Shown here: piece after piece, positions 802-63,842 of the stretch
Layout of the letters: each line of letters opens with the position of its first letter
Numbering within the stretch: the stretch's first letter is position 1
Assembly (NCBI GenBank): GCA_964560345.1
Contig: CAZLLP010000005.1
Coordinates: 47,071 to 111,070, forward strand
Source: an uncultured Gemmatimonadaceae bacterium
Lineage (GTDB): Bacteria > Gemmatimonadota > Gemmatimonadetes > Gemmatimonadales > Gemmatimonadaceae
Reading direction: 5' to 3'
DNA length: 64,000 nt
Program-made: the position numbers and the translations under genes
The notes under the pieces: model-generated
What the model was told of the DNA's origin: nothing
What the model saw: only the letters and a program-made list of their open reading frames with translations
The model's database searches: none

Positions 802-2166
802 ATGAAGAAGTCCGAAAGCGCGATCCACGTCGTCGGGGGCGGCCTGGCCGGGAGCGAAGCCGCCTGGCAGTTGGCGGAGCGCGGCCACGACGTGGTGCTG
901 CACGAGATGCGGCCGGTGCGCGGGACCGAGGCGCACAAGACCGATCGCCTGGCCGAACTGGTCTGCTCCAACACGTTCAAGAGCACCGAACTGTCCAACG
1001 CGCACGGGCTGCTCAAGGCCGAGATGCGGGCGCTGGGGTCGATCATCCTCGTCGCCGCCGACGAAGCGCGCGTCGCCGCGGGTTCGGCGCTCGCCGTCGA
1101 TCGCGACGTCTTTTCGGCTGGGGTGCACGAGCGGCTGCACGCACACCCGCGCGTGACGGTCGTGCGCGAAGAGGTGACCGCGCTGCCGTCGCCCGGGATC
1201 ATCGCCACCGGGCCGTTGACCTCCGACGCGCTCGCCGAGTCGATCCGTGCGCGCCTGGGAGGCGATGCGCTGGCGTTCTACGATGCGATCGCGCCGATCA
1301 TCGCCATCGACTCGATCGACTTGGGCGTAGCCTTTCGCGCCTCACGCTACGACAAGGAGACGATGGAGGGGGCCGACGAGGCGGGGGCGTACCTCAACTG
1401 CCCGTTCAACCGCGTCGAGTACGAGGCGTTCATCGATGCGTTAGGCGCGGCCGACCAGTTCCACGGGCACGACTTCGACCAGGCGCCCTATTTCGAGGGA
1501 TGCATGCCGGCGGAGGAGATGGTCAAGCGCGGTCGCGACACGCTGCGCTTTGGCCCCATGAAGCCGGTCGGGCTTACCGATCCGCGCACCGGGCGCCGCC
1601 CGTGGGCGGTGTTGCAGCTGCGGCGCGAGGATCGCGCCGGGCAGATGTGGAACATGGTGGGCTTCCAGACCCGCCTCCGCATCCCCGAGCAGCAGCGCGT
1701 CTTTCGCATGGTGCCGGGGCTGGCCGAGGCGGAGTTCCTGCGCTACGGGTCGATCCATCGCAATTCGTACCTCAACACGCCGGCGTCGCTCACGCCGCAC
1801 CTGTCGCTCAAGGACGATCCGCAGGTGCTGTTTGCCGGCCAACTGACGGGAGTCGAGGGATACACCGAGAGCTCCGCCACCGGGTTGATGGCGGGGATCA
1901 ACCTGTCGCGCATGCTGCGCGGCGAGGCGCCGGTGGTCCCGCCGCCGCTCACGATGCTGGGGGCGCTCTATCGCTACCTGCGCGAGGCCGACCCGCGCCA
2001 CTTCCAGCCGATGAACGCCAACTTCGGATTGCTGGAGGAGCTCCCTGATCCGCCGCGCGACAAGCGCCTCAAGAAGGAGCGGCTGTCGGAGCGCGCGTTA
2101 GGCGCGCTGGCGGCGTGGATGGCCGAGGCCGGGATCGGACCGGTGGAGGCGGGACGTGAGCGCTGA
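802..2166 (+). CDS. trmFO: methylenetetrahydrofolate--tRNA-(uracil-5-)-methyltransferase TrmFO (Gid)
   Basis: 454-aa ORF with an N-terminal FAD Rossmann motif (VVGGGLAGSEAAWQLA). Length and the GidA-related pattern (CSNTFK, GQLTGVEGYTESSATGL) match TrmFO. Confidence 0.9.
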   Translation: MKKSESAIHVVGGGLAGSEAAWQLAERGHDVVLHEMRPVRGTEAHKTDRLAELVCSNTFKSTELSNAHGLLKAEMRALGSIILVAADEARVAAGSALAVDRDVFSAGVHERLHAHPRVTVVREEVTALPSPGIIATGPLTSDALAESIRARLGGDALAFYDAIAPIIAIDSIDLGVAFRASRYDKETMEGADEAGAYLNCPFNRVEYEAFIDALGAADQFHGHDFDQAPYFEGCMPAEEMVKRGRDTLRFGPMKPVGLTDPRTGRRPWAVLQLRREDRAGQMWNMVGFQTRLRIPEQQRVFRMVPGLAEAEFLRYGSIHRNSYLNTPASLTPHLSLKDDPQVLFAGQLTGVEGYTESSATGLMAGINLSRMLRGEAPVVPPPLTMLGALYRYLREADPRHFQPMNANFGLLEELPDPPRDKRLKKERLSERALGALAAWMAEAGIGPVEAGRER

Positions 2167-3103
2167 CGAACCAGTACTCACCCCGCGCCCCGTCGAGCTG
2201 AGCGACTTCCTGATCCACCTCGAGAAGGAACGCGACGTATCGCCGCACACCCTCAAGGCGTACGCCCGCGACCTCGACGCCTTCGTCACCTACCTCAGCC
2301 AGCAGCGTGGGATCGAGGCCTTCTCCTGGGACGGCGTCGACCGCCTGACCATGCGCGGGTACCTGGGATATCTCACCCGCAAGGGGCTCAGCAAGCGGTC
2401 GATCGCACGCGCGCTGTCGGCGCTGCGCACCTTTTATCGCTTTCTGCAGCGCGAGGAGATCGTCGACGCCAACCCGGCCCGCGCGGTTGGCTCTCCCAAG
2501 TTGGAGAAGTACCTCCCCGGCTACCTCGATCGCGCGCAGGTCGACCTCCTCTTCCAGGCCGCCGAGGCGCGGGCGTGGGAGGGCGAGTTCCCCGATGTGC
2601 GCAACTTCGCCATCCTCGAGCTGTTCTACTCCACCGGATTGCGGCTGTCGGAGCTGCGCGGCATCAGCACCGGCGACCTCGATCTCGTCTCGCAACAGGT
2701 CAAGGTGCGCGGCAAGGGGCGCAAGGAGCGCATCGTCCCCATTGGCGACCACGCCCAGCGCGCCCTGCGCAACTACGAATCCAAGCGCGACGAGCTGCTG
2801 CGGGTGGTTGGGGCGGGGGCCGACCGGCGCGCCTTCTTCCTCTCGCGCACCGGCAAGCGCATGAGCGCGCGCGGGATCCAGCTCGTGGTGACCAAGTTCC
2901 TCGACCAGGTGGACGAGGATGCGGGACTGTCCACGCACTCGCTCCGCCACACGTTTGCCACCCACCTCCTGGACGCCGGCGCCGACCTGCGCGCCGTCCA
3001 GGAGCTCCTCGGCCACGCCAGCATCTCGACCACGCAGATCTACACCCACACCAGCGTCGAGCGGCTCAAGCAGGTGTACGAGAAGTCCCATCCCCGAGCC
3101 TAA
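2156..3103 (+). CDS. xerC: tyrosine recombinase XerC/XerD family
   Basis: 315 aa with an N-terminal SAM-like core-binding domain. Catalytic signature is present: [38 protein letters not shown] start overlaps the trmFO 3' end by 11 nt. Confidence 0.9.
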
Positions 3104-3107
3104 CGCC

Positions 3108-5201: not shown

Positions 5202-5252
5202 CCATGCGCGATCGCGCGCGGTCGCGCGCGTCGTGACCGACCGGCGCGAGCG

Positions 5253-7451
5253 TTAGGCGCGCGCGCCGAGCGGGTTGGGGGCGTCGAGCAGCTGGAACAG
5301 GCGCCCGATCGCCTCCTGATCGAGCGGCTTGGCCAGGTAGTCGTCCATCCCGGCACTCACGCAGCGCTCGCGGTCCTGCGCAAAGGCGTTGGCGGTCATC
5401 GCGACGATGCGGGTGCGGCGCCCGCCGGTCGCCTCCATCGCGCGGATCTGCGCGGTCGCCTCGAAGCCGTCCAGCTCTGGCATCATGCAGTCCATCAGGA
5501 TGACGTCGAACGACGCGGCGCGGCACGCCTCCACCGCCTCACGTCCGTTGCGCGCGTGCGTGACGTGATGCCCGGCGCGCTGCAACAGGTGCAACGCGAC
5601 CAGCGCATTCACCTCGTTGTCCTCGACGAGGAGCACTTCGCGCGGCGGCTGCACCAGCGCGGCCGTTGACGGCGTGAGGCTGCGCGCGCGCAGCTCGCGC
5701 CGCTCCTCGCTCACCCCGGCCTGGGCCTCGCGCCAGTCGAGCACCACGACCGGGATGGTGACCCGGAACGTGGTCCCGACGCCGAGCGTGCTCTCCACCT
5801 CGACCTCACCCCCCAGCAGGTGCACCAGTTGCTGCGTGATGGCCAGCCCGAGTCCCGTCCCGCCAAAGCGTCGCGTGGTCGACGTGTCACCCTGCGTGAA
5901 CTTCTCGAACACCTGCCCCAGGTGATCGGCGGCGATCCCGATCCCCGTGTCGGCGACCGTCACCCGCAACGCCGGCGCCTGCAACGTCCCCGCCGGTCCG
6001 AGCGACACGCGCACCGCGCCCACCGTCGTGAACTTGATGGCATTGCCCACCAGGTTGGTCACCACCTGGCGAATCCGGGTCACGTCGTTGTGCACGCGCC
6101 CCGGAATCCCCGCGTCGAGCCGCAAGGAGAGGGTGAGCCCCTTGGCGCGTGCGGACGCCTGGAACATCTCCACCAGCTCCGAGAGGGTCGGCGCTGGCGA
6201 GAAGGGGACCGGCTCCAACTCGATCTTGCCGGCCTCGATCTTGGACAGGTCGAGGATGTCGTTCAGGATCGACATCAGCGACTGCGCCGACGCCAGCGAC
6301 GTCTCGGCAAACTCGCGCTGATCGCGGCCGAGCGGCGTATCGAGCAGGAGGCTGAGCATCCCCATCACCCCGTTCATCGGCGTGCGGATCTCATGGCTCA
6401 TCGTCGCCAGGAAGTCGGACTTGGCGCGGCTCGCCGCCTCGGCGGCATCGCGGGCGCTGCGCAGCTCTTCCTCGGTGCGGCGGCGCCGGATCATCCCCGC
6501 CAGCGTACTCGCCGCGGCGGTGAGGAACTCGTCGTCATGCGCATCGCGCGCGCGGTCGCGCTCGAGGTGCACGACCAGCACGCCAATGGCGACGCCGTCC
6601 GACATCAGCGGGATCGCGTAGAACCCGGTCAACGTCCCGTGCGACTCACCGCACTCGTCAGGCGCCACGTACGGTGCAAACTGCATCGTGCCGCTGGCCA
6701 TCGCTCGGCGGCACCGGCAGGCGCGCTGGTCTTTCATGCTGCACGCGACCGTTCCCGCTCCGGTGTCGCCCGATGCCGCGTCCCCGCGATGCGCCACGCG
6801 TACCAGCGTGTCGTCGGGCGCTTCGCGCAGGTACACCGAAAGGCGTGACGAGGTAGCCAGCAGCGGCGCGGACGCCAGCGTTGCCAGCGCGCGCTGCAGC
6901 ATCTCCGTGAGCGACGCGTCCTCGAGCCCCACCTGCAACAGCGCGGTGAGGACGCGCTGGTTGGCAAAAGCGCGCTCGATGGCTTCGTGCGCGCGACGGC
7001 GGTCACTGATGTCGCTGTGCGACCCCGCCATGCGCACGGGGACGCCGGCGTCGTTGCGCAAGACCATCCCGCGCGCCACCACCCAGCGATACGAGCCGTC
7101 CTTGTGCCGCATGCGGAACTCGGGCTCGTAGACGGCCAGCTTGCCGTCGATCGCCGCTTGCACCTGCGCCAGCGTCCGGTCGATGTCATCCGGGTGAACG
7201 AGTGCCGTCCACGTGGAGAACTCGTTAGGAAGCTCGTCGTCATCAAAACCGCAAATGCGCTTCCACTGCGGTGAGAAGTAGACCGCGTTGGTACGCAGGT
7301 CCCAGTCCCAGATGCCATCGCGCGATCCCTGCACGGCAATCTGCCAGCGATCACGCCAATGCTCGGCGTCGCCCGACGGGTCGGGAACGTGCGACGGGGT
7401 GATCGCCGGAGCGACCGATCCTGCGATCGGTGGCGCGGAGGTATCAGGCAT
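5253..7451 (-). CDS. hybrid sensor histidine kinase (PAS-GAF-HisKA-HATPase-receiver)
   Basis: PAS (IWDWDL..YFSPQW..RHKDGSYRW), a GAF-like region, H-box SHEIRTPMNG, N/G boxes NLVGNAIKFT, DTGIGI, GGTGLGL, and a C-terminal receiver (LLVEDNEVN..DVILMDCMMPELDG..KP). Start taken at ATG 7451 (MPDTSAPP) and is uncertain. Confidence 0.85.
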   Translation of the reverse strand: MPDTSAPPIAGSVAPAITPSHVPDPSGDAEHWRDRWQIAVQGSRDGIWDWDLRTNAVYFSPQWKRICGFDDDELPNEFSTWTALVHPDDIDRTLAQVQAAIDGKLAVYEPEFRMRHKDGSYRWVVARGMVLRNDAGVPVRMAGSHSDISDRRRAHEAIERAFANQRVLTALLQVGLEDASLTEMLQRALATLASAPLLATSSRLSVYLREAPDDTLVRVAHRGDAASGDTGAGTVACSMKDQRACRCRRAMASGTMQFAPYVAPDECGESHGTLTGFYAIPLMSDGVAIGVLVVHLERDRARDAHDDEFLTAAASTLAGMIRRRRTEEELRSARDAAEAASRAKSDFLATMSHEIRTPMNGVMGMLSLLLDTPLGRDQREFAETSLASAQSLMSILNDILDLSKIEAGKIELEPVPFSPAPTLSELVEMFQASARAKGLTLSLRLDAGIPGRVHNDVTRIRQVVTNLVGNAIKFTTVGAVRVSLGPAGTLQAPALRVTVADTGIGIAADHLGQVFEKFTQGDTSTTRRFGGTGLGLAITQQLVHLLGGEVEVESTLGVGTTFRVTIPVVVLDWREAQAGVSEERRELRARSLTPSTAALVQPPREVLLVEDNEVNALVALHLLQRAGHHVTHARNGREAVEACRAASFDVILMDCMMPELDGFEATAQIRAMEATGGRRTRIVAMTANAFAQDRERCVSAGMDDYLAKPLDQEAIGRLFQLLDAPNPLGARA

Positions 7452-7749: not shown

Positions 7750-8661
7750 ATGACGCACCGCGACTTCCTCGCGATTCCAGACTTTTCCTCCGACGAGCTG
7801 CTCTCGCTCTTTGCGCTCGCCGAGTCGATGCGCAGCGGGCGGTATGATAAGAAACCGCTCATCGGGAAGTCGCTGGCGATGATCTTCATGAAATCGTCGA
7901 CGCGCACCCGTGTCTCGTTCGAGGTCGGAACGTGGCAGCTCGGCGGCGCGGCCTGGTTCCTCTCGCCCCGCGACGTGCAAATCGGGCGCGGCGAACCCAT
8001 CGGCGATACCGCCAAGGTCCTGTCGCGGTACGTCGACGGGATCATGATTCGCACCTTCTCGCACCAGGACGTGGAGGCGCTGGCGCACGATGCGTCGATC
8101 CCCGTCATCAACGGGCTCACCGACTACCTGCATCCGTGCCAGGTGTTGGCCGACGTGCTGACGATCCGTCAGCATCTCGGGACGCACGAGGGGCAGGTGG
8201 TGGCGTGGATCGGCGATGGGAACAACATGGCCAACTCGTGGATCAACGCCGCCTATCGCCTCGGCTTTGACCTGCGCCTCGCCTGTCCCGAAGGGTACGA
8301 CCCCGATCCCGCGCTACTGGCGCGGGCGCGCGAGAGCGGGCGCGTCGAACTGGTGCGCGATCCGCGTGAGGCGGTGCGCGGGGCCACGGTCGTCACCACG
8401 GACGTGTGGGCCTCGATGGGACAGGAGGAGGAACAGGCGGCGCGCGAGCGGGCCTTCGCCGGCTTCAGCGTCGACTCGGCGCTCATGTCGCGCGCCGAGC
8501 CTAACGCGATCTTCCTGCACTGCCTCCCGGCGCACCGGGGCGAGGAGGTGGCCGCCGATGTCATCGACGGACCGCAGAGCCGCGTCTGGGACGAAGCCGA
8601 GAACCGCCTGCACATCCAGAAGGCCATCATGGCCGTGCTGATGGGAGGCGAGGCGCTCTAG
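7750..8661 (+). CDS. argF: ornithine carbamoyltransferase
   Basis: ATG at 7750 inside track ORF 7288..8661. Carries the STRTRVSFE carbamoyl-phosphate motif plus HPCQ and HCLPAHRGEE motifs. About 303 aa. Confidence 0.9.
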   Translation: MTHRDFLAIPDFSSDELLSLFALAESMRSGRYDKKPLIGKSLAMIFMKSSTRTRVSFEVGTWQLGGAAWFLSPRDVQIGRGEPIGDTAKVLSRYVDGIMIRTFSHQDVEALAHDASIPVINGLTDYLHPCQVLADVLTIRQHLGTHEGQVVAWIGDGNNMANSWINAAYRLGFDLRLACPEGYDPDPALLARARESGRVELVRDPREAVRGATVVTTDVWASMGQEEEQAARERAFAGFSVDSALMSRAEPNAIFLHCLPAHRGEEVAADVIDGPQSRVWDEAENRLHIQKAIMAVLMGGEAL

Positions 8662-21867: not shown

Positions 21868-22158
<291 letters not shown>

Positions 22159-39692: not shown

Positions 39693-39698
39693 CGAGCC

Positions 39699-44165: not shown

Positions 44166-44516
44166 ATGGCCGCACTTCGCATCTTGATGTTGGCGATCGT
44201 GATCGCGTTAGGCACGGTGCTGGTGGCGTGGTGGATCGTCCCGGTGCTGGCGCTGGTCTTTGGCGTGGTGACGCACCGCACACGCCGTCCCGGTCTCACC
44301 GCCGCGCTGAGCGGAGCGGTGGCGTGGGGCGGATATCTCGCCCTGGCGAGCGTGGGCGGTGCGCCGGTGGGAAGTTTCGCGGGTGCGTTGGCGACGTCGA
44401 TGCAGCTTCCGGGGTGGGCGCCATTGGTCGCGACCCTGGTCTTTCCTGCCCTGCTCGCCGGATCGAGCGCCTACCTCGGCGCACGGCTGGGAGGGCGCTA
44501 TCTTTCTCCCGCATGA
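44166..44516 (+). CDS. small hypothetical membrane protein
   Basis: 116 aa from ATG 44166, about 4 hydrophobic helices. Tightly packed between the acylase stop and the gcdH start (ATGA overlap). Confidence 0.5.
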   Translation: MAALRILMLAIVIALGTVLVAWWIVPVLALVFGVVTHRTRRPGLTAALSGAVAWGGYLALASVGGAPVGSFAGALATSMQLPGWAPLVATLVFPALLAGSSAYLGARLGGRYLSPA

Positions 44517-47371: not shown

Positions 47372-47413
47372 CCGCGCAGCGTTAGGCGCCCGGTGCCGCT
47401 CGGCGACGAGCGC

Positions 47414-52268: not shown

Positions 52269-52769
52269 ATGGTGCGGAAGCGATGGACGGCGGTCGGGCT
52301 CGTGTTTCTGCTCCTTGGTGCCTGCGGGGGCGAACAATTGCCTAACGCGGACAGTGTCATCGCGGCCGAACAGGCGCCAGCGCCGGCGGCGGCTGCCGAC
52401 TCCACGATGGGTGCGCCGACGGCGGGGGAGACCAATACGCTGCCGAAGTCGTCGCCGTCCGCGGCGGGGGAGTATCGCCTGGCGGGGAACGAGCCGTTCT
52501 GGTCGGTGCGCATCACGGCCAAGGGGCTCACCTACACGACCCCCGACTACCAGAAGGGGATCCTCTTTCCCGCCACCGCCCCCGAGGCCAGCGGGACGAC
52601 GCTGCGATGGGTCGCGCTCACCCCGCCCCCCGAGGCGCACACGCTCGAGGTGACGCTGGAAGACGCCAAGTGCCAGGACTCGATGGCCGACAAGACCTGG
52701 ACGCATCGCGCCACCGTCACCTTCGACGGGACCAGACTTTCCGGGTGCGGCGAGCGCCTGACGAAGTAG
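52269..52769 (+). CDS. hypothetical lipoprotein (COG3650-like)
   Basis: Lipobox LLLGAC, then a GNEPFWSV...C.D........F.G....GCG pattern. Confidence 0.55.
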   Translation: MVRKRWTAVGLVFLLLGACGGEQLPNADSVIAAEQAPAPAAAADSTMGAPTAGETNTLPKSSPSAAGEYRLAGNEPFWSVRITAKGLTYTTPDYQKGILFPATAPEASGTTLRWVALTPPPEAHTLEVTLEDAKCQDSMADKTWTHRATVTFDGTRLSGCGERLTK

Positions 52770-52797: not shown

Positions 52798-52801
52798 GCG
52801 C

Positions 52802-53470
52802 CTAACGCACGCGCAGGACGTGCAACTGGATGTCGTGCTTCTGGGCCCCTTCGGCAAAGGGCGACGTCCAGTGCTCGGTGAGCGCCAGGCCCCCCTCCTC
52901 GGCGGCCAGCAGGAACGATTCCAGTGACAGGCGCCCCGGGTCGGCGATCAGCGCGTAGCCGTCGTCGCGCACGGTGGCGATCACGGCGTCGGCCACCAGT
53001 TCGCCGTGCGTGTGCTCGTACAGCACGTCCGAGGCGACCACCACGTGGAAGCGCCCCAGGTCACGCGGCATGTCGCGCCAGTCGACCATGCGCGTGGACG
53101 GATATTGCCCCGTGTTGCGTGCGACGTTGACGCGCGTGAACTCGAGTGCGTCGGGGTAGTAGTCCGTGGCTGTGACCTTGTAGCCGGCGGCGGCGAGCGC
53201 GCAGGCCACCAGCCCGCTGCCACACCCCAGCTCCAGCGCGCGCCGTCCATCACCCTTGTGACGCACCACGTGCTCGGCGAGCACCTTGGCCGAGGGCCAG
53301 ACGTCGGCCCAGTACGGAAGGCGTTCGTCCTTGAGGTAGTCGGCTTCGCTGATGAGCGTGTCGGCGTTGCGCGGGTGGGCGAGGACAAAGGTGCGCTTGC
53401 CGCATGCGACCTCCGTCTCCGTCACGTCGAAGCGTGCACGGAGACCCTCCAACTCTTCTTCCCACGTCAC
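52802..53470 (-). CDS. class I SAM-dependent methyltransferase
   Basis: Motif I LELGCGSGLVA, a post-I acidic residue (TATDYY) and DVLY. The GTG start overlaps the moeA stop (GTGA). Confidence 0.75.
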   Translation of the reverse strand: MTWEEELEGLRARFDVTETEVACGKRTFVLAHPRNADTLISEADYLKDERLPYWADVWPSAKVLAEHVVRHKGDGRRALELGCGSGLVACALAAAGYKVTATDYYPDALEFTRVNVARNTGQYPSTRMVDWRDMPRDLGRFHVVVASDVLYEHTHGELVADAVIATVRDDGYALIADPGRLSLESFLLAAEEGGLALTEHWTSPFAEGAQKHDIQLHVLRVR

Positions 53471-54717
53471 AGCGCGAAGACCTCGGACAGGGAGGCGTCG
53501 TCCGAGACGAGGAGCGCGTGCACCACCTCGCCGGCTTCGCAGCGCGGCCGTTCCTCGGGGACGATCAGCAGCGCGTTGGCGCGTGCCATCGAGGTCAGGA
53601 TCCCCGAGCCCTGCGGGCCGGTGAGCCGCGCGTGCATGCGTCCGTCGTCGCCGGCGCGCACGATGCCGCGCAGGAAGTGCGTGAGGCGCGCGCCGATGCT
53701 CACCGGTTCGTCGAGGATGACCGGGACCGGGTGACGAAAGAGGCGCGCGTGTCCTTGCAGCCGGCGGAGCACGGGGCGCACGAACAGTTCGAACGTCACC
53801 ATCACCGAGACGGGGTTACCGGGGAGCCCCACCCACGGCGTGCCGTGCAGCGTCCCGAAGCCGATGGGGGCGCCGGGGCGCATGCGCACCTTCCAGAAAT
53901 CGAGGCGAGCCCCTAACGAGGCGAGCACCTCGCGCGTGTAGTCGAAGGCCCCCACCGACGCCCCCGCCGACGTGATGATGAGGTCGACCCCCCTGGCCTG
54001 TTCGAGCAGCGCGCGCAGCGATTCGGGCGTGTCGGAGGCGTTCCCCAGCAGGAGCGGAATGCCACCGTTGCTCCTGACGAGCGCACTCAGGGTGTACGAG
54101 TTGGAGGTGACGATCTTGCGCCCGGCCAGCACCTCGTGGAACCGGTCGAGGTCCACCAGTTCGTCGCCCGACCCGAGGATCGCGACCACCGGGCGCCGAT
54201 AGACATCGACCGAGGGGAGCCCGAGCGAGGCGAGGACGCCGACCTGCGCCGGGGCGATCGGTGTCCCGGCCGGGATCACGACGTCGTCGGCGACAAAGTC
54301 CTCCCCACGCGGACGGATGTTCTTGCGCAGGTCGCGCGCGTCGCGGATGGCGACGACCTCGAGTCCCCCGTCGGTATCCTCCACGCGCACCACGGTATCG
54401 GCGCCGTCGGGGAGCGGCGCGCCGGTCATGATGCGCGTGCAGATCCCTTCGCGCACCGGGAGGGTGGGAAACTCCCCGGCTGCCACCGTCTCCTGCACCG
54501 TCAGGCGCACTGGCGATTCGGCGGTTGCCCCGGCGAGGTCGGTGCCACGCACGGCATACCCGTCCATGGCCGAGTTGTCCCAGTGGGGGAGCGTGTAGCT
54601 GGCGACCGCATCGCGGGCGAGGACGCGTCCCACCGCCTCGAGCAGCGGGACGCGTTCGGGGGCGAGCGCGGCAATGTTGGCCAGGCTGCGGGCGCTCGCC
54701 TCGGCGACAGTGAGCAT
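53467..54717 (-). CDS. moeA: molybdopterin molybdenumtransferase MoeA
   Basis: 416 aa with the MoeA domain pattern (SAMDGYAV, TGAPLP.GADTVV, SGDEL, ITSGG-like TSAGASVG, GLPGNPVS). Confidence 0.9.
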   Translation of the reverse strand: MLTVAEASARSLANIAALAPERVPLLEAVGRVLARDAVASYTLPHWDNSAMDGYAVRGTDLAGATAESPVRLTVQETVAAGEFPTLPVREGICTRIMTGAPLPDGADTVVRVEDTDGGLEVVAIRDARDLRKNIRPRGEDFVADDVVIPAGTPIAPAQVGVLASLGLPSVDVYRRPVVAILGSGDELVDLDRFHEVLAGRKIVTSNSYTLSALVRSNGGIPLLLGNASDTPESLRALLEQARGVDLIITSAGASVGAFDYTREVLASLGARLDFWKVRMRPGAPIGFGTLHGTPWVGLPGNPVSVMVTFELFVRPVLRRLQGHARLFRHPVPVILDEPVSIGARLTHFLRGIVRAGDDGRMHARLTGPQGSGILTSMARANALLIVPEERPRCEAGEVVHALLVSDDASLSEVFAL

Positions 54718-56258
54718 CAGCGCGTCCCTCCCGCCAGGCGCATCCCCGCCAGCTGCACCGCCAGCGTGTCCTGCACGCGCTCGATCTCGCGCGTGGGGAC
54801 CGTAAAGTGGTTGGAGAGGACGCTGAACAGGAGGAGGCGGCCGTCGGCCGTGGTGACGTAGCCGGAGAGCGACCGCACCATGTCGAGCGTCCCGGTCTTG
54901 GCGTGCACGTTGCCTTCTGCGACGGTCCCCTTCATCCGGTTGCGAATGGTGCCGTCGATGCCCGCGATGGGGAGGGCGTCGTAGAAGATCTTGAAGTCGG
55001 GCGACTGCCGCATGGCGTCGAGGACGCGGATGATGGTCTCGGGGGTGATGACGTCATGCCGCGAGAGCCCGCTGCCATCGCGCACGACGAAGCCGTCCGG
55101 GGCCGCCCCCCAGGCGAGCACCTGATCGCGCACCACTCGCGCCCCGCTGTCGGCACTGCCGACGCCGGCCCGCGCCCTGCCTAACGTCCGCAGCAGGATT
55201 TCGCCGATCTGGTTCTGCGACGGCTTCTCGAAGGCGGCGAGCACCTGCGAGAGCGGCGGCGACATCATCGAGAAGAGCGGATAGGTCGAGGCGCCGCGCC
55301 ACATCGACAATCCGCCGTCAATCGCGATCCCGCGCGCGGACAATGCTTCGTGCAGCGCGAGGAGATAGGCGCGCGCCGGGTCGCGGTGCGTGATCTCCAC
55401 CACCGCCGAGTCGCCAGCCGCAATGGTGCCGTCGATGATGACGGTGGCGGCGTCGGTGGAGTCCTGCCGGATGGTGAGCGTCCGCGGGCGCCGCACGTTG
55501 GCGCCGGAGACCGGGAGCGGCGCGACCGTCTGCGCCCACACGCGCACGCGCGGGACCGACTGGGCGGGGGCGGTGCGCGCGGTCGGCACGTCGCCCGCGC
55601 TGGCCCCGCCACGCACGATCACGCGCGAGAAGCCCTCGTTGAAGTACAACTCGTCGACGCCGGCGGAGTAGGCAAAGTCGAGGTCGTCGTACGACCAGCC
55701 GAAGCCTAACGTGGCATCGGGAAAGGCATCCGCCCCTGGAACCAGCGCTCCGGTGACTCGCGTCACGCCGCGCGCCGCGAGCGAATCGGCCATGGCCCGC
55801 AGCGGTGCCATGGCATCCCTGGCCATGTGGTCGCTGATGCTCGGGTCGCCGGTTCCGCTCACCACCAGGTCGCCGCGCAGCTCGTTCCCCACGATGGGGC
55901 CGGTCGCTGCCACCGTGGTGCTGAACCGGAAACCGGTCCCCAGCAGGTGCAAGGCCACCGCCCCGGTGAGGATCTTCTGGTTGGAGGCAGGGATGAAGAG
56001 CTTCCCGGCGTTGTGCGAGACCAGGGTGTCACCGGAGATCGGGTCGACCACGAGGATCCCTAACTGCGCGCTGCGAAACTTGGCATCCGCGACCATCGAG
56101 TCGACGGTGCGCCGGACGGCGGCCACCGCCGGCGAGACCCGTGGCGCCGGTGGTGTGGCGGCGCGACCCGGCGCGCACGCCGCGACGGCGAGCGACCCGG
56201 AGAGGACGGCGGCAAGTGCAGCCGGCGTGACGCGTGGCGATGCGAAGTGACGGAGCAT
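54717..56258 (-). CDS. dacB: D-alanyl-D-alanine carboxypeptidase/endopeptidase (PBP4, peptidase S13)
   Basis: Signal peptide, SxxK as PASNQK, SGN-like and KTG (HAKTGTL) motifs. The stop overlaps the moeA start (ATGA at 54717). Confidence 0.85.
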   Translation of the reverse strand: MLRHFASPRVTPAALAAVLSGSLAVAACAPGRAATPPAPRVSPAVAAVRRTVDSMVADAKFRSAQLGILVVDPISGDTLVSHNAGKLFIPASNQKILTGAVALHLLGTGFRFSTTVAATGPIVGNELRGDLVVSGTGDPSISDHMARDAMAPLRAMADSLAARGVTRVTGALVPGADAFPDATLGFGWSYDDLDFAYSAGVDELYFNEGFSRVIVRGGASAGDVPTARTAPAQSVPRVRVWAQTVAPLPVSGANVRRPRTLTIRQDSTDAATVIIDGTIAAGDSAVVEITHRDPARAYLLALHEALSARGIAIDGGLSMWRGASTYPLFSMMSPPLSQVLAAFEKPSQNQIGEILLRTLGRARAGVGSADSGARVVRDQVLAWGAAPDGFVVRDGSGLSRHDVITPETIIRVLDAMRQSPDFKIFYDALPIAGIDGTIRNRMKGTVAEGNVHAKTGTLDMVRSLSGYVTTADGRLLLFSVLSNHFTVPTREIERVQDTLAVQLAGMRLAGGTR

Positions 56259-56914: not shown

Positions 56915-57556
56915 CTAGGACGAGGTGTCGAACGGCATGGCGAGGGAGCCGGACGCGAGCGACTCGGCGACGCGCTCGGCCTGTGCGCGCTCTTCCGGAG
57001 TATTCACGTTCAGGAACAACACCGAGGGATCGCCAAAGGTCGCAACCTGCTCGGCGCCGAGTCGCGCCACGCGCACCGCATCGAAGAAGGCGATCACGCG
57101 GCGGTCTCCGCGATCGAGCGCCGCCGTGATGGCGTCGAGGCAGGGCGGGGCATACCAGGCGCACATCGGCTCCAGCCCGCGCTTGCTCCCGCTCTCCGGG
57201 AGCGCGGCGTCAACGCCCGATTCGCCTAACGCGCGCAGCCGGGCGAGCAGCGCGGGGCTCACGAACGGCATGTCCCACGCGACAACCAGTGCGGCCCCGC
57301 CGGCGTGCGAGAGCGCGGCGTGCAGTCCGCCGAGGCTCCCTTGGCCCGCGCGGATGTCGCGCGCGACGCGAACGCCCGGGAGCCACTCCGAGGCGCGGTC
57401 GTCGTTGGCGATGAGGAGCAGGTCGTCAGTCACGGCGCGCAGCGCATCGGCCACACGGTCGATGATGCGACGTCCGCCGACCACTTCGAGCCCCTTGGGA
57501 TGCCCGCCGAACCGTGTCGCCCCCCCTCCGGCGAGGATCACTCCCGTGCAGGGCAT
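56915..57556 (-). CDS. mobA: molybdenum cofactor guanylyltransferase MobA
   Basis: ATG at 57556 inside track ORF 56915..58174. Carries ILAGGGATRFGG, the GSLGG and DMPF motifs. Confidence 0.85.
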   Translation of the reverse strand: MPCTGVILAGGGATRFGGHPKGLEVVGGRRIIDRVADALRAVTDDLLLIANDDRASEWLPGVRVARDIRAGQGSLGGLHAALSHAGGAALVVAWDMPFVSPALLARLRALGESGVDAALPESGSKRGLEPMCAWYAPPCLDAITAALDRGDRRVIAFFDAVRVARLGAEQVATFGDPSVLFLNVNTPEERAQAERVAESLASGSLAMPFDTSS

Positions 57557-57561
57557 CGCGC

Positions 57562-58323
57562 CTAACGCCCCGCCGTCGGCAGGTGCAACTGCGGCGCCCC
57601 GCTCACGGCGCGGGCAATGAGGAGCATGTCGGCGGCACGGGCAATCTCCACCGCAATCGTCGACGGCACCGAGGGGGTGGCGACGGCGGCAACCCCAGCG
57701 CGCGCCGCCTTGAACGCCAACTCCCCCGAGATGCGCCCGGTCACGAGCAGGATCAGGTTGGCCGGCGAACGCCCCGCTTGCAGCGCCGCGCCAAGGACCT
57801 TGTCCACCGCATTGTGCCGCCCGATGTCCTCGGCGTGATGAAAGAGCGAGGTGCCGTCGGTGAGCGCGGCGGCGTGAATCCCTCCCGTCTCCTTGTAGCG
57901 CGTGCCGAGGGCGAACAGCTCCTTGAAGACCGCCCGCAACCTGGGCGTGTCGACGTCCGGGACCGTCCCGGTGCGGCGCGGCACGTCGGCGAGGCTGCCC
58001 AGGAAGGCGGTGACAGACCCGCACCCCGAGGCGAGGATGCGCCGCCTCGACTGGCCTTCGACCGCTTGCACGCGCGCCGGGTCGATGTCCACCCAGAACC
58101 CCAACTCCTTCGTGCAGGGGCGCATGCGGGTGATGTCGGCGAGCGACTCGATGTATCCCTCGCCAAAGAGCCACCCGACCACGAGCTCATCGAGCGCATC
58201 CGGCGTACACATCCACGTGACGACCGGCACCCGGTTGAGCTCGAGCCAGACCGGCGACTCCTCGACCGCGTCGAGCGGAGTTGGAGCCGCGGGGGAGCCG
58301 GAAGGAGAGGAGGACTCGCTCAT
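57562..58323 (-). CDS. fdhD: formate dehydrogenase accessory sulfurtransferase FdhD
   Basis: ATG at 58323. The Cys loop SGCGS, the EDIGRHNAVDK motif and a C-terminal SGRISGEL-type region are present. Confidence 0.85.
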   Translation of the reverse strand: MSESSSPSGSPAAPTPLDAVEESPVWLELNRVPVVTWMCTPDALDELVVGWLFGEGYIESLADITRMRPCTKELGFWVDIDPARVQAVEGQSRRRILASGCGSVTAFLGSLADVPRRTGTVPDVDTPRLRAVFKELFALGTRYKETGGIHAAALTDGTSLFHHAEDIGRHNAVDKVLGAALQAGRSPANLILLVTGRISGELAFKAARAGVAAVATPSVPSTIAVEIARAADMLLIARAVSGAPQLHLPTAGR

Positions 58324-58361: not shown

Positions 58362-58817
58362 CTAGATCTCGCCTTCCCGTCTTCCCGTCTTCCCGTCCTC
58401 CCCCCGATAGGCAGACGAGAGCGTCGCGTCCTCCGCCACCCGGACCTCGACGACATCGACCGCGCTGCCTAACGCCGAGCGGAGCTGTCCAAAGATGAGC
58501 CGGGCGATGTTCTCCCCGGTGGGGATCTGCCGTCCCTCGGCGAACTCGGGGATGTCGAGATTGAGGTTGCGATGGTCGTAGCGCTCGCGCACCTCGCGGG
58601 CCAGCACACCGTCGAGCACCCCGAGGTCGACGATGAAACCGGTGAGCTCGTCGATCTCGCCGCCCACGGTCACATCGCAGACGTACGTGTGTCCGTGATA
58701 GTTGGGGCGGGCGCAGAGCCCGAACGTCGCCTCGTTGCGCGCGTCGTCCCACTCCGGGCGGCGGTAGCGGTGCGCCGCGGCGAACGTCACGCGGCGCGTG
58801 AGGTACGCCCGCGCCAC
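58362..58817 (-). CDS. queD: 6-carboxy-5,6,7,8-tetrahydropterin synthase QueD
   Basis: GTG at 58817. PTPS fold motifs are FAAAHRY, NYHGHTY and DHRNLN. The last ~14 residues (GEDGKTGRREGEI) are encoded by an octamer repeat array. Confidence 0.8.
   Translation of the reverse strand: MARAYLTRRVTFAAAHRYRRPEWDDARNEATFGLCARPNYHGHTYVCDVTVGGEIDELTGFIVDLGVLDGVLAREVRERYDHRNLNLDIPEFAEGRQIPTGENIARLIFGQLRSALGSAVDVVEVRVAEDATLSSAYRGEDGKTGRREGEI
58373..58396. repeat. 3 x CTTCCCGT octamer array forming the 3' end of queD (minus strand)
   Basis: Perfect tandem octamers at 58373-58396, followed by a degenerate CCTCCCCC. On the queD sense strand this reads GGGAAGAC repeats. Confidence 0.8.
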
Positions 58818-58818: not shown

Positions 58819-59514
58819 CTAGCGGCCGAAGGTGTACGTGATCCCGGCGGTGAGGCCGAGGTTGCGCTTCCAGACGTTGCGCCCCGCCGTCGGGTCGAGC
58901 ACCGACGGGTCGGCGGTCGACTTGGTGAAGTACGAGTCGGGGTAGCGGATGCGGTAGAAGTAGTTGGCCGCATCGATGCGCCCCTGCCAGCGGCCCCCCG
59001 GGACGATCTTGATGGCCGGACGGAAGGCGAGCAGGAACGGATAGCCGAACCTGTAACCGCCCACGTCGGGGGAGTCGAAGCCCGCGCCGATCCCGAGCCC
59101 GCCACCTAACGACGGGACGATCCCGTGCCACGACTTGTAGCCCGTGAGGTTGAGCGCGAAACCGATGTCGGTGAGCAGCATCGTCACCGATTCCTTTCCG
59201 AGAAAACGCTCGGTGAGGAGCTTGGTCGGGTCGACCACCTGGCGCTCGGAGAGCACGATCGACGAGTTGGCGGTGAAGTACGCCGGCCCGGTGATGTGGA
59301 ACTCGTAGTGCGCCCCAAAGGTCGGGCCGCTCTGCGGCGCCACCTTGGCGGGGTCCTCCGACGCCTGGTATTGCCCGGCAAAGAAGGTCAGCTCCTGGCG
59401 ACGCGCCAGGTCGCGATACGGCGAGTTGCGCGGCGTGTGTCCCACCTGCGCCTCGGCAATCGCCGGCGCCAGCACGCACAACCCGAGGAGGGCGAACGAT
59501 CGAATCGTCATCAC
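58819..59514 (-). CDS. hypothetical outer-membrane beta-barrel protein
   Basis: Signal peptide (LGLCVLAPAIAEA), alternating hydrophobic beta-strand pattern, aromatic-rich C-terminus ...GITYTFGR. Confidence 0.55.
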   Translation of the reverse strand: MMTIRSFALLGLCVLAPAIAEAQVGHTPRNSPYRDLARRQELTFFAGQYQASEDPAKVAPQSGPTFGAHYEFHITGPAYFTANSSIVLSERQVVDPTKLLTERFLGKESVTMLLTDIGFALNLTGYKSWHGIVPSLGGGLGIGAGFDSPDVGGYRFGYPFLLAFRPAIKIVPGGRWQGRIDAANYFYRIRYPDSYFTKSTADPSVLDPTAGRNVWKRNLGLTAGITYTFGR

Positions 59515-59521: not shown

Positions 59522-61072
59522 TCAGGACTCTTGGGACAGCAGGCGCAGCGAGCGCCCGGTCATTTCAGTCGGTTGGTCGATGCCGAGCATCGAAAGAATC
59601 GTCGGTCCCACGTCGCACAGCGCACCCCCGCCTCGCAGCGGGCGGTCGCCGTCCGGATCGACGACGACGAGCGGGACCGGGTTGGTCGTGTGCGCCGTGT
59701 GCGGGCCACCGGTCTCCGGGTCGATCATCACTTCACAGTTGCCGTGGTCGGCGGTGACCAGGAGTCGCGCCCCCGCCTTCTCCGCTGCCTTGATGACACG
59801 TGCCAGGCATTCGTCCACCGTCTCGAGCGCCTTGATCACCGCCGGGATCGACCCGGTGTGCCCCACCATGTCCGCATTGGCGTAGTTACACAGGGTGAAG
59901 TCGTACGATCCACTCGCAATCGCCTCCACCAGCACGTCGGTTACCCCCGCGGCCGACATCTCGGGCTGCAGGTCGTACGTGGGGACCTTGGGGCTGGCCA
60001 CCAGGTTGCGCACTTCCCCTGCAAACGGCGTCTCGATCCCGCCGTTGAAGAAATAGGTCACGTGCGGGTACTTCTCGGTTTCCGCCGTGCGAAACATCGT
60101 CATCCCCGTCTCCGACACCACCTCGGCGACAATGCGGGCCATCGAGAAGGGGGGGAAGGCGACCGGGAAGGAGAAGGTCTCGTCGTACGACGTCATCGTC
60201 GCCAGGTGCAAGCGCTGCGGGCGTGTGCTGATGTCGAAGCCGCCGAAGTCGGGCTGCGTGAGCGCCCGCACCATCTGCCGCATGCGATCCGAGCGGTAGT
60301 TGAAGCCGATGATCGCGTCGCCGTCGCGGATCGGGGCCACCGGCTCGCCGTATTCCGTCACCACCATCGGGGTGATGAACTCGTCGGTCTCGCCGCGATC
60401 GTAGGCGGCGCGAATGGCGGCCAGCGGATCATCGGTCGACGGTCCGACTCCCATCACGCTGTCGTACCACTTCTTGACCCGCTCCCACCGCTTGTCGCGA
60501 TCCATCCCGAAGTAGCGCCCACCTAACGAGGCGATCTTCGCCCGTCCCCTGGCCGCGGCCAGCGTCTGCTGCATGTAGCCAAAGCCGTTGGTCGGCAGCG
60601 TGTCGCGCCCGTCCATGAGCGCGTGGATCGCGACCTTGGCCACCCCCTGCTGCTCGGCCAGCTCGATGAGCGCGAACAGGTGCGACTGCATGGCGTGCAC
60701 GCCGCCATCGCCCATGAGTCCCAGCAGGTGCAGCGTCCCGCCGTTCCGCTTCACGTGGGCGCAGGCGTCCACAAAGGCCGGCTTGGTGAAGAACGAGCGG
60801 TCGGTGATCGACTCCTCGATGCGCACCAGGTCCTGCTTGACCACCCGCCCGGCGCCCAGGTTGAGGTGCCCCACCTCGCTGTTTCCCATCTGACCGGCGG
60901 GGAGTCCTACCGCGAGCCCCGACGCGTCCAGAAGGGTGCGAGGCGCCTTGGACCAGAGCGCGTTCCAGGTCGGCATCTTTGCCATCGCAACGGCGTTACC
61001 TTCCGCGGCATCGCGATGGCCAAAGCCATCGACGACCACGAGGACCACGGGGCGCGTATTCGGACGGGGCAT
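59522..61072 (-). CDS. gpmI: 2,3-bisphosphoglycerate-independent phosphoglycerate mutase
   Basis: ATG at 61072. Carries VVDGFG, the MGNSEVGHLNLGAGR catalytic Ser motif, and TADHGN. Confidence 0.92.
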   Translation of the reverse strand: MPRPNTRPVVLVVVDGFGHRDAAEGNAVAMAKMPTWNALWSKAPRTLLDASGLAVGLPAGQMGNSEVGHLNLGAGRVVKQDLVRIEESITDRSFFTKPAFVDACAHVKRNGGTLHLLGLMGDGGVHAMQSHLFALIELAEQQGVAKVAIHALMDGRDTLPTNGFGYMQQTLAAARGRAKIASLGGRYFGMDRDKRWERVKKWYDSVMGVGPSTDDPLAAIRAAYDRGETDEFITPMVVTEYGEPVAPIRDGDAIIGFNYRSDRMRQMVRALTQPDFGGFDISTRPQRLHLATMTSYDETFSFPVAFPPFSMARIVAEVVSETGMTMFRTAETEKYPHVTYFFNGGIETPFAGEVRNLVASPKVPTYDLQPEMSAAGVTDVLVEAIASGSYDFTLCNYANADMVGHTGSIPAVIKALETVDECLARVIKAAEKAGARLLVTADHGNCEVMIDPETGGPHTAHTTNPVPLVVVDPDGDRPLRGGGALCDVGPTILSMLGIDQPTEMTGRSLRLLSQES

Positions 61073-61851: not shown

Positions 61852-62705
61852 ACGACGTCCGGCACTTCCTCAAGCACGGCGGCACTCCGGCGCGGGTCCT
61901 GCTCGCCCTCGTCGTCCTTCTCCTGCTCGGTAGCGCCGGGCTGGGGGCCGCGACGGTCACGGCGCGCTACCGCCGCGACCTCACCCGCATGGTCTTCAAC
62001 GACAACCTCGAGGTCCTCGAGGACGTGAAGCGGAAGGTCGGGGTGGTCTCCGACTCGCTGCAGACCATTGTCGAGGCGCCGATCGACTCGATCGCCAGCA
62101 AGGCCTACATCGTCGTCAGCATTGCCGACCGTCGCCTGTGGTATCGCGACGGCGATTCGCTCCTGTTCACCACCCGGGTGGCGACGGGGAGCGGAAAGGT
62201 CCTGGCCAAGGGCGGCGGGAACCAGTGGAAGTTCGAGACCCCGCGCGGGCGCCTGGTCGTCCTGAGCAAGGAGAGCGACCCAGCCTGGGTTCCCCCCGAC
62301 TGGCATTACGTCGAGGTGGCGCACAAGAAGAAGCTGGGGCTCCTCAACCTCAAGCGCACCGACCAAATCCCGCTCCCCGACGGCAGCTTTCTGGCCGTGA
62401 ACGGGAGCAACGTCGTGAAGCGTCTCGCCGACGGCGCGGAGGAGGTGCTGGAGGCCGGGGAGGGGAAGGACCTGATCGTGAACGGGAACGTGATCATCCC
62501 GCCGTTCGGGACCAACCAGCGCCGCTTTCCCGGGGTGGTAGGGACGCACCGCCTCAATCTGGGCGACGGCTACGCCCTGCACGGCACCGACGTCCCCAGC
62601 TCGATCGGGAGCGCCGCGAGCCATGGGTGCGTGCGCTTGCGGAACGAGGATATCGAGACCCTGTTCCGCATCGTGCCGGTCGGGACGCCGGTCTACATTT
62701 ACTGA
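61848..62705 (+). CDS. L,D-transpeptidase (YkuD domain)
   Basis: N-terminal TM helix and a YkuD catalytic motif, LHGTD....IGSAASHGCVRLRNEDIETLF. Confidence 0.85.
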   Translation: MNDVRHFLKHGGTPARVLLALVVLLLLGSAGLGAATVTARYRRDLTRMVFNDNLEVLEDVKRKVGVVSDSLQTIVEAPIDSIASKAYIVVSIADRRLWYRDGDSLLFTTRVATGSGKVLAKGGGNQWKFETPRGRLVVLSKESDPAWVPPDWHYVEVAHKKKLGLLNLKRTDQIPLPDGSFLAVNGSNVVKRLADGAEEVLEAGEGKDLIVNGNVIIPPFGTNQRRFPGVVGTHRLNLGDGYALHGTDVPSSIGSAASHGCVRLRNEDIETLFRIVPVGTPVYIY

Positions 62706-62915
62706 CCCGTCGGTCACAGGTCAGGAACCTTCCGCGGGCGGAAGGGGTCCCAAAGCACGTCGTTTTGACCGATCTTGCTCATGCGCCTGGGAAGTGACAG
62801 CTACCGGGCGTTTCCCCCTCCTCCTCACCGTTCGCCTCCCGGCGTGACGTCGCCCAGTTCGGGGCGTCGATCCGCGGGACCCTCGGCATCCACCGGAAGA
62901 CGGGACATCGCCCAC

Positions 62916-63842
62916 GTGCATTTCTCATCGAAAGGTCTGCGCGCCGCTCTCTGCAGCTTCGCGCTCGTCTCGCTTGCGCCTGTCAGCGCGAGCGCCGTCA
63001 CCCCAATCGATCCGCCCAGAACGGCGGCGATTCGCGTGACGAGCCTGTCCAACGATTCGCTCGGAGGACGCAGCGGGAAGCTCAAGGCCCGCATCGTCTC
63101 GACCAAACGCGATGGGAGCATTCGCATCCTGCGACAGCTCTTTGGCGATTCGGCCTCCCAGCGCCCGGGGATCTACCACGCCGCCGACTCGGCGACGGGC
63201 AAGCGCTTCGCCCTGATCAACCTCCTCCCGTTCCAGGCGCGCGAGCGCGGAAAGCTCGGGGGCTACCGTATCGGTTTCTGGCCGGGTGAACGTCGCGCCA
63301 CGTGGGCCAGCAACAAGGCGCCCGAGGGGTTCATCGAGGTGACCACGGAGAACCAGGACACGCCGCTCTCCGAGCACTTCCGCATCCGCGACTTTCTGAC
63401 CCACGACCAGCAGGCGGTGTGGCCCAAGTATCTCGTGCTGCGCGAGGCGCTGGTCGACAAGCTCGAACTGCTGATCTCGGACCTGCAGACCCGCGGCTAC
63501 CGCGTGGCCAGCATGCCGGTCATGTCGGGTTTCCGCACGCCGCAGTACAACGCGTTAGGCGTGGGGGCCAAGGGGGGGCGGGCCAAGGACTCGCGTCACC
63601 AGTACGGTGACGCCGCCGACATCTTCATCGACAACGATGGCGATGGGCGCATGGACGACCTCAATCGCGATGGGCGCGTGGACACGCGCGACGCCAAGGT
63701 GGTGCTCGAGTCGGTGGAGCGGATCGAGAGCGCGCATCCCGATCTGATCGGGGGCGCGGGACTGTATCGTGCGACGTCGTCGCATGGACCGTTCGTTCAC
63801 GTCGATGTGCGCGGCTCCCGCGCACGCTGGGGGAGGATCTAG
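62916..63842 (+). CDS. peptidase M15A/DUF882-type peptidoglycan peptidase (YcbK/MepK-like)
   Basis: Signal peptide after GTG 62916 (start uncertain; the track ORF begins at 62775). Zn ligand contexts SGFRTPQYN...SRHQYGDAADI and HVDVR, with a D-rich (DNDGDGRMDDLNRDGRVD) insert. Confidence 0.7.
   Translation: MHFSSKGLRAALCSFALVSLAPVSASAVTPIDPPRTAAIRVTSLSNDSLGGRSGKLKARIVSTKRDGSIRILRQLFGDSASQRPGIYHAADSATGKRFALINLLPFQARERGKLGGYRIGFWPGERRATWASNKAPEGFIEVTTENQDTPLSEHFRIRDFLTHDQQAVWPKYLVLREALVDKLELLISDLQTRGYRVASMPVMSGFRTPQYNALGVGAKGGRAKDSRHQYGDAADIFIDNDGDGRMDDLNRDGRVDTRDAKVVLESVERIESAHPDLIGGAGLYRATSSHGPFVHVDVRGSRARWGRI

Follow-up and report, generated by a model that had tools for sequence, protein, structure and literature searches.

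Introduction

To our knowledge, hyper-abundant "self" words have been described in very few lineages, namely the DNA uptake sequence (DUS) of Neisseriaceae (GCCGTCTGAA and its dialects), the uptake signal sequence (USS) of Pasteurellaceae (AAGTGCGGT / ACAAGCGGT) as well as HIP1 (GCGATCGC), the highly iterated palindrome of cyanobacteria, and their origin and readers are debated. HIP1 is a hyper-abundant octamer that is over-represented 15-300-fold, is made of non-preferred codons and is conserved between genomes beyond the conservation of codons (PMC5861425). It has recently been argued to be an uptake signal (PMC13756078). In this study, we describe a further case of this class, the octamer CGTTAGGC (core GTTAGG; heptamer form CGTTAGG; hereafter the word), in a 64-kb stretch of DNA (the window; G000:C5:47071-111070) and throughout its source assembly, G000. 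The nearest public relatives of G000 are metagenome-assembled genomes of Gemmatimonadaceae.

The word also touches a second described system. The core site of integrons is GTTRRRY with TAG at positions 3-5 (PMC8876359). The integron integrase IntI is able to act on double-stranded genome sites (attG), for which GWT suffices (bioRxiv 10.1101/2022.09.11.507474), and integrons are fed by natural transformation (PMC12614218).

The data presented below show that a strand-symmetric force acting at the DNA level favours the exact word, overrides codon preference, fixes amino acids and picks stop codons. With a probability of about 0.6, we consider the word to be a genome-wide double-stranded DNA word maintained by DNA-level selection or drive, likely a self-tag of the DUS/USS type. 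A literature search found no paper describing it as a genome-wide motif.

Materials and methods

The source assembly comprises 6.74 Mb in 321 contigs with a GC content of 67.8%. Genes were called with our own simple caller (stop-to-stop open reading frames, iterated codon log-odds and greedy non-overlapping choice), which returned 5366 genes covering 87.5% of G000.

The codon alignment of CstA comprised 12 genomes of the genus of G000 and 29 other genera, and included the unpublished word-poor genome G031 as one row. For a wider conservation test, positions 26-46 kb of the window were compared with five members of the genus at positions where Leu is conserved. Family tallies include two unpublished genomes, G031 (word-poor) and G058 (intermediate); the conclusions are independent of both.

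Results

CGTTAGG occurs 44 times on the two strands of the window, whereas dinucleotide-preserving shuffles averaged 2.8 and reached 7 at most. Alignment of the window copies gave the octamer C-GTTAGG-C, with flanks beyond it that were not conserved. Genome-wide, G000 carries 3505 heptamers and 2778 octamers; the octamer is about 42 times its order-2 Markov expectation and is split evenly between the strands (1390/1388). The word is kept at a density of about one copy per 1.5-2.4 kb. Low-order k-mer rankings of G000 were all topped by GTTAGG and its extensions. In a high-order Markov ranking the word went unnoticed, since the sub-words it contains are themselves enriched. Relaxation is confined to the end positions: TGTTAGGC, the second commonest variant, reaches 7 times its expectation, and CGTTAGG[GT] 5-6 times.

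The word is written into every open frame, on both strands, and into gene ends (as TAG or TAA) and spacers. The heptamers of G000 were distributed as follows:
sense NCG-TTA-GGN: 1872
sense GTT-AGG: 69
antisense CCT-AAC-G: 620
antisense CTA-ACG: 158
gene edge or stop: 367
intergenic: 419

Among the Leu codons of G000, TTA ranks last or close to last in use (1.37 per 1000 codons). Of all TTA codons, 69% lie inside the word, 84% have GGN after them and 75% have NCG before them. In a 400-kb sample of G014, a word-free genome of the same family, TTA stands at 0.45 per 1000 and is followed by GGN in 3 of 53 cases; in the cultured, word-rich Gemmatirosa kalamazoonensis KBS708 (G063; over 20 kb, its contig C2 matches NZ_CP007129.1 exactly), GGN follows in 174 of 182. 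Every frame responds when the full octamer context is available in G000:
NCG-Leu-GGC: TTA 51%, against 0.4% in the control context NCG-Leu-GCC
G-Pro-AAC-G: CCT 67%, against a background of 5%
xGC-Leu-ACG: CTA 16%, against 1.2% in the control
C-Val-AGG-C: GTT 25%, against a background of 4%

The GTT-AGG and CTA-ACG frames are rare because fitting contexts are scarce, not because these frames are spared. A strong frame preference, as read from raw occupancy (VR 0.5% and LT 1.3% versus 31-39%), mostly disappeared on conditioning on the full octamer context. That x-Leu(TTA)-Gly prevails is due solely to [ASTP]-Leu-Gly, written with the preferred NCG and GGC codons, being by far the most frequent peptide context in which the non-wobble bases are in place beforehand. 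The word encodes 31% of the 6045 [ASTP]LG and 39% of the 1620 PN[AGVDE] tripeptides of G000. It also supplies stop codons (280 TAG and 164 TAA, 8.6% of genes); 11% of genes end in the word in G001, a member of the same genus, and 10.5% in G. kalamazoonensis, compared with 0.6% in the word-free G014.

ARAGORN and Rfam searches found no tRNA-Leu(UAA) in G000, and tRNA-Ser(GCT) and tRNA-Gln(UUG) were likewise missing from the assembly. All five Leu tRNAs, including tRNA-Leu(UAA) and tRNA-Leu(UAG), are present in G001 and G002 of the same genus. Given the two other missing tRNAs, the absence in G000 was taken as an assembly gap. tRNA supply was rejected as the cause of a preference for TTA-GGC over CTA-ACG, as the genus has all five Leu tRNAs. 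A 95-nt "tRNA-Stop(tta)" reported by ARAGORN at C23:26644-26738 has poor stems and is probably spurious.

The word is also kept by orthologues. At the DPLG motif of CstA, all 12 genomes of the genus have CCG-TTA-GGC, and word-free relatives have CTC, CTG or CTT. A second CstA site is GCG-TTA-GGC in 11 of 12 and A[VILAMF]G in relatives; the Leu codon just 5' of it varies within the genus (TTG, CTT, CTG, CTC). Across the 26-46-kb region, the TTA of the word was kept in 8/9, 6/7, 5/7, 5/6 and 5/6 cases in the five genus members, compared with 16-28% for other rare and 58-64% for common Leu codons (Fisher p = 0.0009 for G004). In the same comparison, 25-46% of word hexamers were unshared, which is the extent of turnover. 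The word is thus maintained beyond mere descent.

The proteomes of word-rich genomes are bent towards the word. Observed/expected ratios of the compatible tripeptides were as follows, and control tripeptides were flat across the same four genomes:
[ASTP]LG: G014 (word-free) 0.93; G000 1.18; G001 1.39; G. kalamazoonensis 1.40
PN[AGVDE]: G014 (word-free) 1.38; G000 1.56; G001 2.14; G. kalamazoonensis 2.48

The force acts mostly on long-resident DNA, and native genes have the highest occupancy. The 1.1-Mb plasmid of G. kalamazoonensis has the same word density as the chromosome. An HK97-type capsid gene, looked for in G000 for a comparison of prophage density, was not found.

These results bear on several claims of the first-pass annotation, which was made from the window alone. 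Its central proposal, that the word is favoured at the nucleic-acid level wherever the protein allows and through rare codons, agrees with the TTA shares (51% versus 0.4%), with the CTC or CTG used at orthologous positions of word-free relatives, a comparison that it had suggested, and with the conserved TTA. Genome-wide tabulation, which it had suggested, confirmed that TTA is rare and tied to the word and that its link with a following GG is extreme, rather than TTA being an ordinary codon. Sharing purely by descent, which it had considered, does not account for TTA being kept above other rare Leu codons, and the tRNA-Leu(UAA) gene that it had named as a check is found in the genus. A cost of rare codons, which it had also supposed, is not visible: occupancy by the word climbs with codon bias, from 13% in the genes of lowest third-position GC content to 43% in the highest.

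Copies are spaced more evenly than expected in G000. Gaps below 200 bp are 2.4 times rarer than expected (198 observed versus 476), and gaps of 400-1600 bp are in excess. Spacers are about twice as dense in copies as genes, at 1.1 per kb in convergent and 0.5 per kb in divergent spacers. The 533 spacer copies gave merely the consensus C-GTTAGG-C, with unconserved flanks.

The word is patchy and lineage-specific inside one family. The 12 other members of the genus are all word-rich (1085-7821 octamers). In 40 other genera of the family, the word ranges from 2 to about 1250-1280 copies per Mb and exceeds its reversed-word control in about 18. None of 92 sampled genomes from 11 other families of the phylum is rich, and in word-free genomes the word lies 5-20 times below its reversed control. 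A quick CstA tree, with G031 included, placed the genus together with three further genera that carry the word (support 99). The remaining rich genera, that of G. kalamazoonensis among them, sit in other places where the tree is poorly resolved. An alternative dialect was considered for the word-free G014, and no other hyper-abundant word was present in its 400 kb. Outside Gemmatimonadaceae, G030 (family f3, genus g14) had 345 octamers against about 150 for the control; they may stem from the word having been gained independently, from misplacement of the bin or from contamination.

Where word-poor genomes of other families have repeated copies, each of these forms one end of an imperfect palindrome of 85-130 nt. 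The palindromes follow one another at intervals of 500-1000 bp and are therefore integron attC arrays, with the ends GCCTAAC(A/G)... and ...CGTTAGGC. Arrays with 85-125-nt sites were seen in word-poor genomes of another family (G021:C95:1-30000, G019:C3 and G029:C1), with more than 20 consecutive sites at a contig end. G. kalamazoonensis, which is word-rich, carries IntI in intact form together with a homogeneous set of at least 15 attC sites, detected with a fold-based scanner (GCCTAACG...ATTCGTTAGGC or ...GTTAGAC). Its integron has been reported by IntegronFinder 2 (PMC9024848); it is sedentary and lies on the 1.1-Mb plasmid 1 (NZ_CP007129.1:837000-858999), where the at least 15 attC sites are near-identical and 96-98 nt long. 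Since GTTAGGC fits the GTTRRRY core with its TAG (PMC8876359) and the R-boxes of G019, G021 and G. kalamazoonensis are identical, the word is exactly the R-box of the attC sites of the phylum. A chance match of 8 of 8 positions would occur about once in 33,000. This identity appears to be new here and is the main fact that is left unexplained.

The genome copies may accordingly be regarded as integron-linked, that is, as double-stranded R-box half-sites read by IntI, by a relative or by a cassette-tuned system. Word abundance would then reflect recombinase binding, cassette capture or cassette genesis and not a generic self-tag. Besides the R-box identity, this explanation draws on the action of IntI on double-stranded attG (bioRxiv 10.1101/2022.09.11.507474) and on TGTTAGGC, the second commonest variant, being the R'' form of the attC sites of G021. 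We consider it unlikely on the following evidence. IntI does not track the word: it scored above the curated cut-off in 5 of 11 word-rich but 16 of 23 word-poor family genomes, and G032, of the richest sampled genus, has it only as frameshifted pieces. In the array of G. kalamazoonensis, about one R-box in three is GTTAGAC, yet 400 kb of the chromosome hold 2 GTTAGAC against 295 GTTAGGC, and G000 holds 17 against 2778 word octamers. Palindromic attC-like partners were sought for the genome copies of G000 and none was found, nor was an L-box. The integron of G000 itself (G000:C120:1-4637; IntI at 3696-4637 on the minus strand, 394 bits against TIGR02249) has at least three cassettes beside IntI, with the core sites GTTAGAC and GTTAGCG and not the genome word. 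Moreover, attG requires GWT only. As a simple cause of word abundance, IntI was rejected on these tests of co-variation, GTTAGAC, partners and own cassettes. A reader common to the word and the integron recombination machinery, or descended from that machinery, seems similarly doubtful, as does a genome-wide footprint of DNA uptake or processing biased towards the ends of cassettes.

A neutral mutational or repair bias would dispense with function altogether. Here a HIP1-style methyltransferase with very-short-patch repair would convert near-cognate sites into the word. Such a process would fit the depletion of several one-mismatch core variants (3-8 times below expectation), the filling of all frames and spacers alike, the equal densities of megaplasmid and chromosome, and the graded abundance among genera (2 to about 1250-1280 per Mb). 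However, short-patch repair corrects a single type of mismatch. It cannot set every one of the 6-8 positions, among them an AT-rich TTA in genomes of 68-73% GC. The change from CTC or CTG to TTA takes two steps, yet TTG and CTA, the codons in between, show background levels where the word context is present. The word is also asymmetric, and part of the depletion of variants is an artefact that comes from avoidance of TA in general. Repair bias is therefore judged quite unlikely.

Intragenic copies lie mostly on the sense strand (71% genome-wide, 72% in the window). The first-pass annotation had held that this bias follows transcription and not replication, and had offered either coding constraints or an RNA-level role. 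Word orientation in G000 is uncorrelated with GC skew (rho -0.03), as it had held; the correlation with gene strand (rho 0.44) is a coding effect. The sense share follows from coding capacity, since [ASTP]LG sites are 3.7 times more numerous than PN[AGVDE] sites in G000. In the word-free G014 sample, the counts are 272 and 83, from which equal occupancy would predict 77% sense. In spacers between co-directional genes, 136 copies share the strand of the genes and 138 have the opposite one. The sense-strand excess is thus a by-product of coding capacity with no transcription or RNA effect; of the two alternatives offered, coding constraints were right, and the RNA-level role fails on the even spacer counts and on the higher occupancy of PN[AGVDE] (39%) than of [ASTP]LG (31%).

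An RNA- or translation-level signal, in which CGUUAGG in mRNA or TTA itself is the selected feature, is very unlikely for the same reasons. The sense share and the rarity of TTA among Leu codons speak for it, but the spacer copies have no transcription-strand preference, the antisense-compatible tripeptides are the more occupied, the peptide counts of a word-free genome predict the sense share, occupancy goes up and not down with codon bias, both TAG and TAA stops come from the word, and 1872 TTA sites over thousands of ordinary genes are no regulon. The present data already contradict it. In bldA-type regulation, TTA would occur only in the genes of a regulon, the tRNA-Leu(UAA) that reads it would itself be regulated, and neighbouring bases would be irrelevant. 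Here, in contrast, TTA is tied to its neighbours on both sides and spread genome-wide, and the word is also present antisense as CCT-AAC.

A polar chromosome-maintenance motif, either Chi (RecBCD/AddAB) or the FtsK-orienting polar and SpoIIIE recognition sequences (KOPS/SRS), would explain an octamer over-represented in its native genome, but such polarity is excluded by the absence of correlation with GC skew and by the 181 "leading" and 164 "lagging" copies (52% leading) in the 400 kb that surround dnaA in the closed genome of G. kalamazoonensis, and the roughly 40-fold enrichment is well beyond that of known Chi or KOPS words, so that this explanation is highly improbable.

The window copies were placed individually with our own gene calls (sense and antisense refer to the host gene; tripeptides are in one-letter code):
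1439..1445, plus: sense, GCG TTA GGC (ALG), gene 802-2163 plus
2096..2102, plus: sense, ALG, gene 802-2163 plus
3099..3105, minus: TAA stop of gene 2156-3100 plus, Xer-like tyrosine recombinase
5251..5257, plus: TAA stop of gene 5256-7334 minus
7223..7229, plus: antisense, CCT AAC GAG (PNE), gene 5256-7334 minus
8500..8506, minus: antisense, CCT AAC GCG (PNA), gene 7750-8658 plus
15083..15089, minus: sense, ALG, gene 14923-18030 minus
16045..16051, minus: sense, the only GTT AGG (Val-Arg) copy, gene 14923-18030 minus
16724..16730, minus: sense, TCG TTA GGT (SLG), gene 14923-18030 minus
21080..21086, minus: antisense, PNV, gene 20648-21604 plus
21862..21868, plus: intergenic
23449..23455, plus: TAG stop of gene 22909-23451 plus
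26587..26593, plus: intergenic
27258..27264, minus: weakly called gene edge; GCG TTA GGC (a 14th ALG) if a minus-strand open reading frame is accepted
28627..28633, plus: sense, TLG, gene 27816-29129 plus
28981..28987, plus: sense, ALG, gene 27816-29129 plus
29851..29857, plus: sense, SLG, gene 29148-30233 plus
30304..30310, minus: TAG stop of gene 30308-31192 minus
32101..32107, plus: sense, ALG, gene 31290-33014 plus, MutS domain V protein
33965..33971, plus: antisense, PNG, gene 33252-35606 minus, S9 peptidase
34823..34829, plus: antisense, PNA, gene 33252-35606 minus
36125..36131, minus: sense, CCG TTA GGC (PLG), invariant DPLG of CstA
36845..36851, minus: sense, GCG TTA GGC (ALG), CstA
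39688..39694, minus: TAA stop of gene 38673-39689 plus
40540..40546, minus: TAA stop of gene 39699-40541 plus
41936..41942, plus: sense, ALG, gene 41671-44160 plus, penicillin amidase family
42388..42394, minus: antisense, PNG, gene 41671-44160 plus
44206..44212, plus: sense, ALG, gene 44166-44513 plus
45282..45288, plus: sense, GCG TTA GGT (ALG), gene 44513-45685 plus
46258..46264, plus: sense, ALG, gene 45699-46805 plus
47380..47386, plus: intergenic
47774..47780, plus: antisense, the only CTA ACG (Leu-Thr) copy, gene 47417-48259 minus
49128..49134, minus: antisense, PNV, gene 49125-50111 plus
52341..52347, minus: antisense, PNA, gene 52269-52766 plus
52801..52807, minus: TAG stop of gene 52805-53470 minus
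53912..53918, minus: sense, SLG, gene 53470-54717 minus
55180..55186, minus: sense, TLG, gene 54720-56126 minus
55705..55711, minus: sense, TLG, gene 54720-56126 minus
57225..57231, minus: sense, ALG, gene 56918-57541 minus
57561..57567, minus: TAG stop of gene 57565-58230 minus
58468..58474, minus: sense, ALG, gene 58365-58817 minus
59105..59111, minus: sense, SLG, gene 58822-59514 minus
60522..60528, minus: sense, SLG, gene 59525-61048 minus
63553..63559, plus: sense, ALG, gene 63036-63839 plus

These calls reproduce the motif hyper-abundance in gene frames that had been described for the window, with one copy differing. The pattern of sense copies read as Leu-Gly stands; 23 of 24 such copies with 14 ALG had been given and 22 sense NCG-TTA-GGN copies (ALG 13, SLG 5, TLG 3, PLG 1) were obtained here. 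The sole difference is the copy at 27258. The single GTT AGG exception at 16045, the eight antisense CCT AAC copies and the one CTA ACG copy are the same in both. The remaining copies supply stops (8), are intergenic (3) or lie at the weakly called gene edge (1).

Gene calls are weak (scores 18-20) in the window at 26726-27838, and a minus-strand open reading frame over 27258 is equally plausible. The Xer-like recombinase gene 2156-3100 (plus) reached 65.9 bits against the integron-integrase model, far under the cut-off. The product of gene 31290-33014 (plus), 575 aa, had MutS domain V as its sole match (MutS2-like or MutS-related ATPase).

A second over-represented word family in G000 consists of GACGGGA-type units, such as AAGACGGGAA and GAGACGGGAG, at 2-3 times the high-order Markov expectation. 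These units match heptamer arrays that the first-pass annotation had noted at gene junctions.

Discussion

The preferred reading is that of a double-stranded self-word. Its most likely driver, by analogy with DNA uptake sequences, would be a sequence-specific reader of self DNA, and biased uptake or processing together with homologous recombination may spread and maintain the word. ComEC is present in G000. Since ComEC is near-universal in the family (39 of 41 genomes), the word and the competence genes show no phylogenetic link.

Several points weigh against this reading. Uptake-driven words usually leave decayed copies behind, and one-mismatch core variants are not enriched in G000, several being 3-8 times under expectation. 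No reader or receptor was identified, and no search aimed at a receptor was made; ComEC occurs in the family whatever the word content. We know of no report of natural transformation in the phylum, and a literature search found none on transformation or uptake sequences in Gemmatimonadota. Inverted terminator pairs of the Neisseria type were not found in G000: there are 34 opposite-strand pairs closer than 100 bp, and hairpin arms were present in 0 of 30 divergent pairs of 42-182 bp. The control proteome is one 400-kb sample of a single word-free genome, with genes from our own simple caller. Finally, a plain uptake-tag model leaves the exact identity of the word with the attC R-box unexplained.

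As a hyper-abundant word, this is a very strong case in a subset of one soil family: the word dictates at least one third of compatible tripeptides, at least two thirds of TTA codons and about 9-11% of stops. It also holds a lesson for codon usage, in that a strand-symmetric DNA constraint and peptide abundance can alone mimic a rare-codon or codon-pair preference with sense bias. The word in the cultured G. kalamazoonensis KBS708 makes the readings testable, and its identity with the integron core site names a definite protein, IntI, that could be confirmed or dismissed as a candidate. If IntI bound both CGTTAGGC and CGTTAGAC, it would not be the genome reader. If the integron-linked explanation were true, a whole lineage would have remodelled its codons, peptides and stops around an integron core site, and the genomes concerned would lend themselves to the study of how cassettes are captured or arise.

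The integron core site resembles the word in the identical GTTAGGC and in the occurrence of CGTTAGGC itself in the attC sites of the phylum. In integron cassettes, too, TAG and TAA within the site serve as stops (PMC8876359). However, the genome copies are bare half-sites in ordinary conserved genes, neither in arrays nor beside intI, and they differ from attC and attI in that the equally valid GTTAGAC is not enriched and IntI does not track abundance. HIP1, the nearest analogue among octamers, is similar as a hyper-abundant octamer of non-preferred codons that is conserved beyond codon conservation. Unlike the asymmetric word, HIP1 is palindromic with cognate orphan methyltransferases, and it is scarcer in highly expressed genes, whereas word occupancy rises with codon bias.

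With DUS and USS, the word shares most features. All are short, asymmetric, tens-fold over-represented words at about 1 per 1-2 kb, present in both orientations without replication polarity and more evenly spaced than by chance. They occupy tolerated frames inside genes with a measurable effect on peptides; an effect of USS on peptide composition was reportedly described by Findlay and Redfield in 2009. They are also enriched in native genes and lineage-specific. The word differs in its phylum, Gemmatimonadota, in its few decayed one-mismatch copies, in not forming the terminator-type inverted pairs of the Neisseria DUS, in its coincidence with the integron core site, and in a distribution that is patchy and graded within a family instead of family-wide with dialects.

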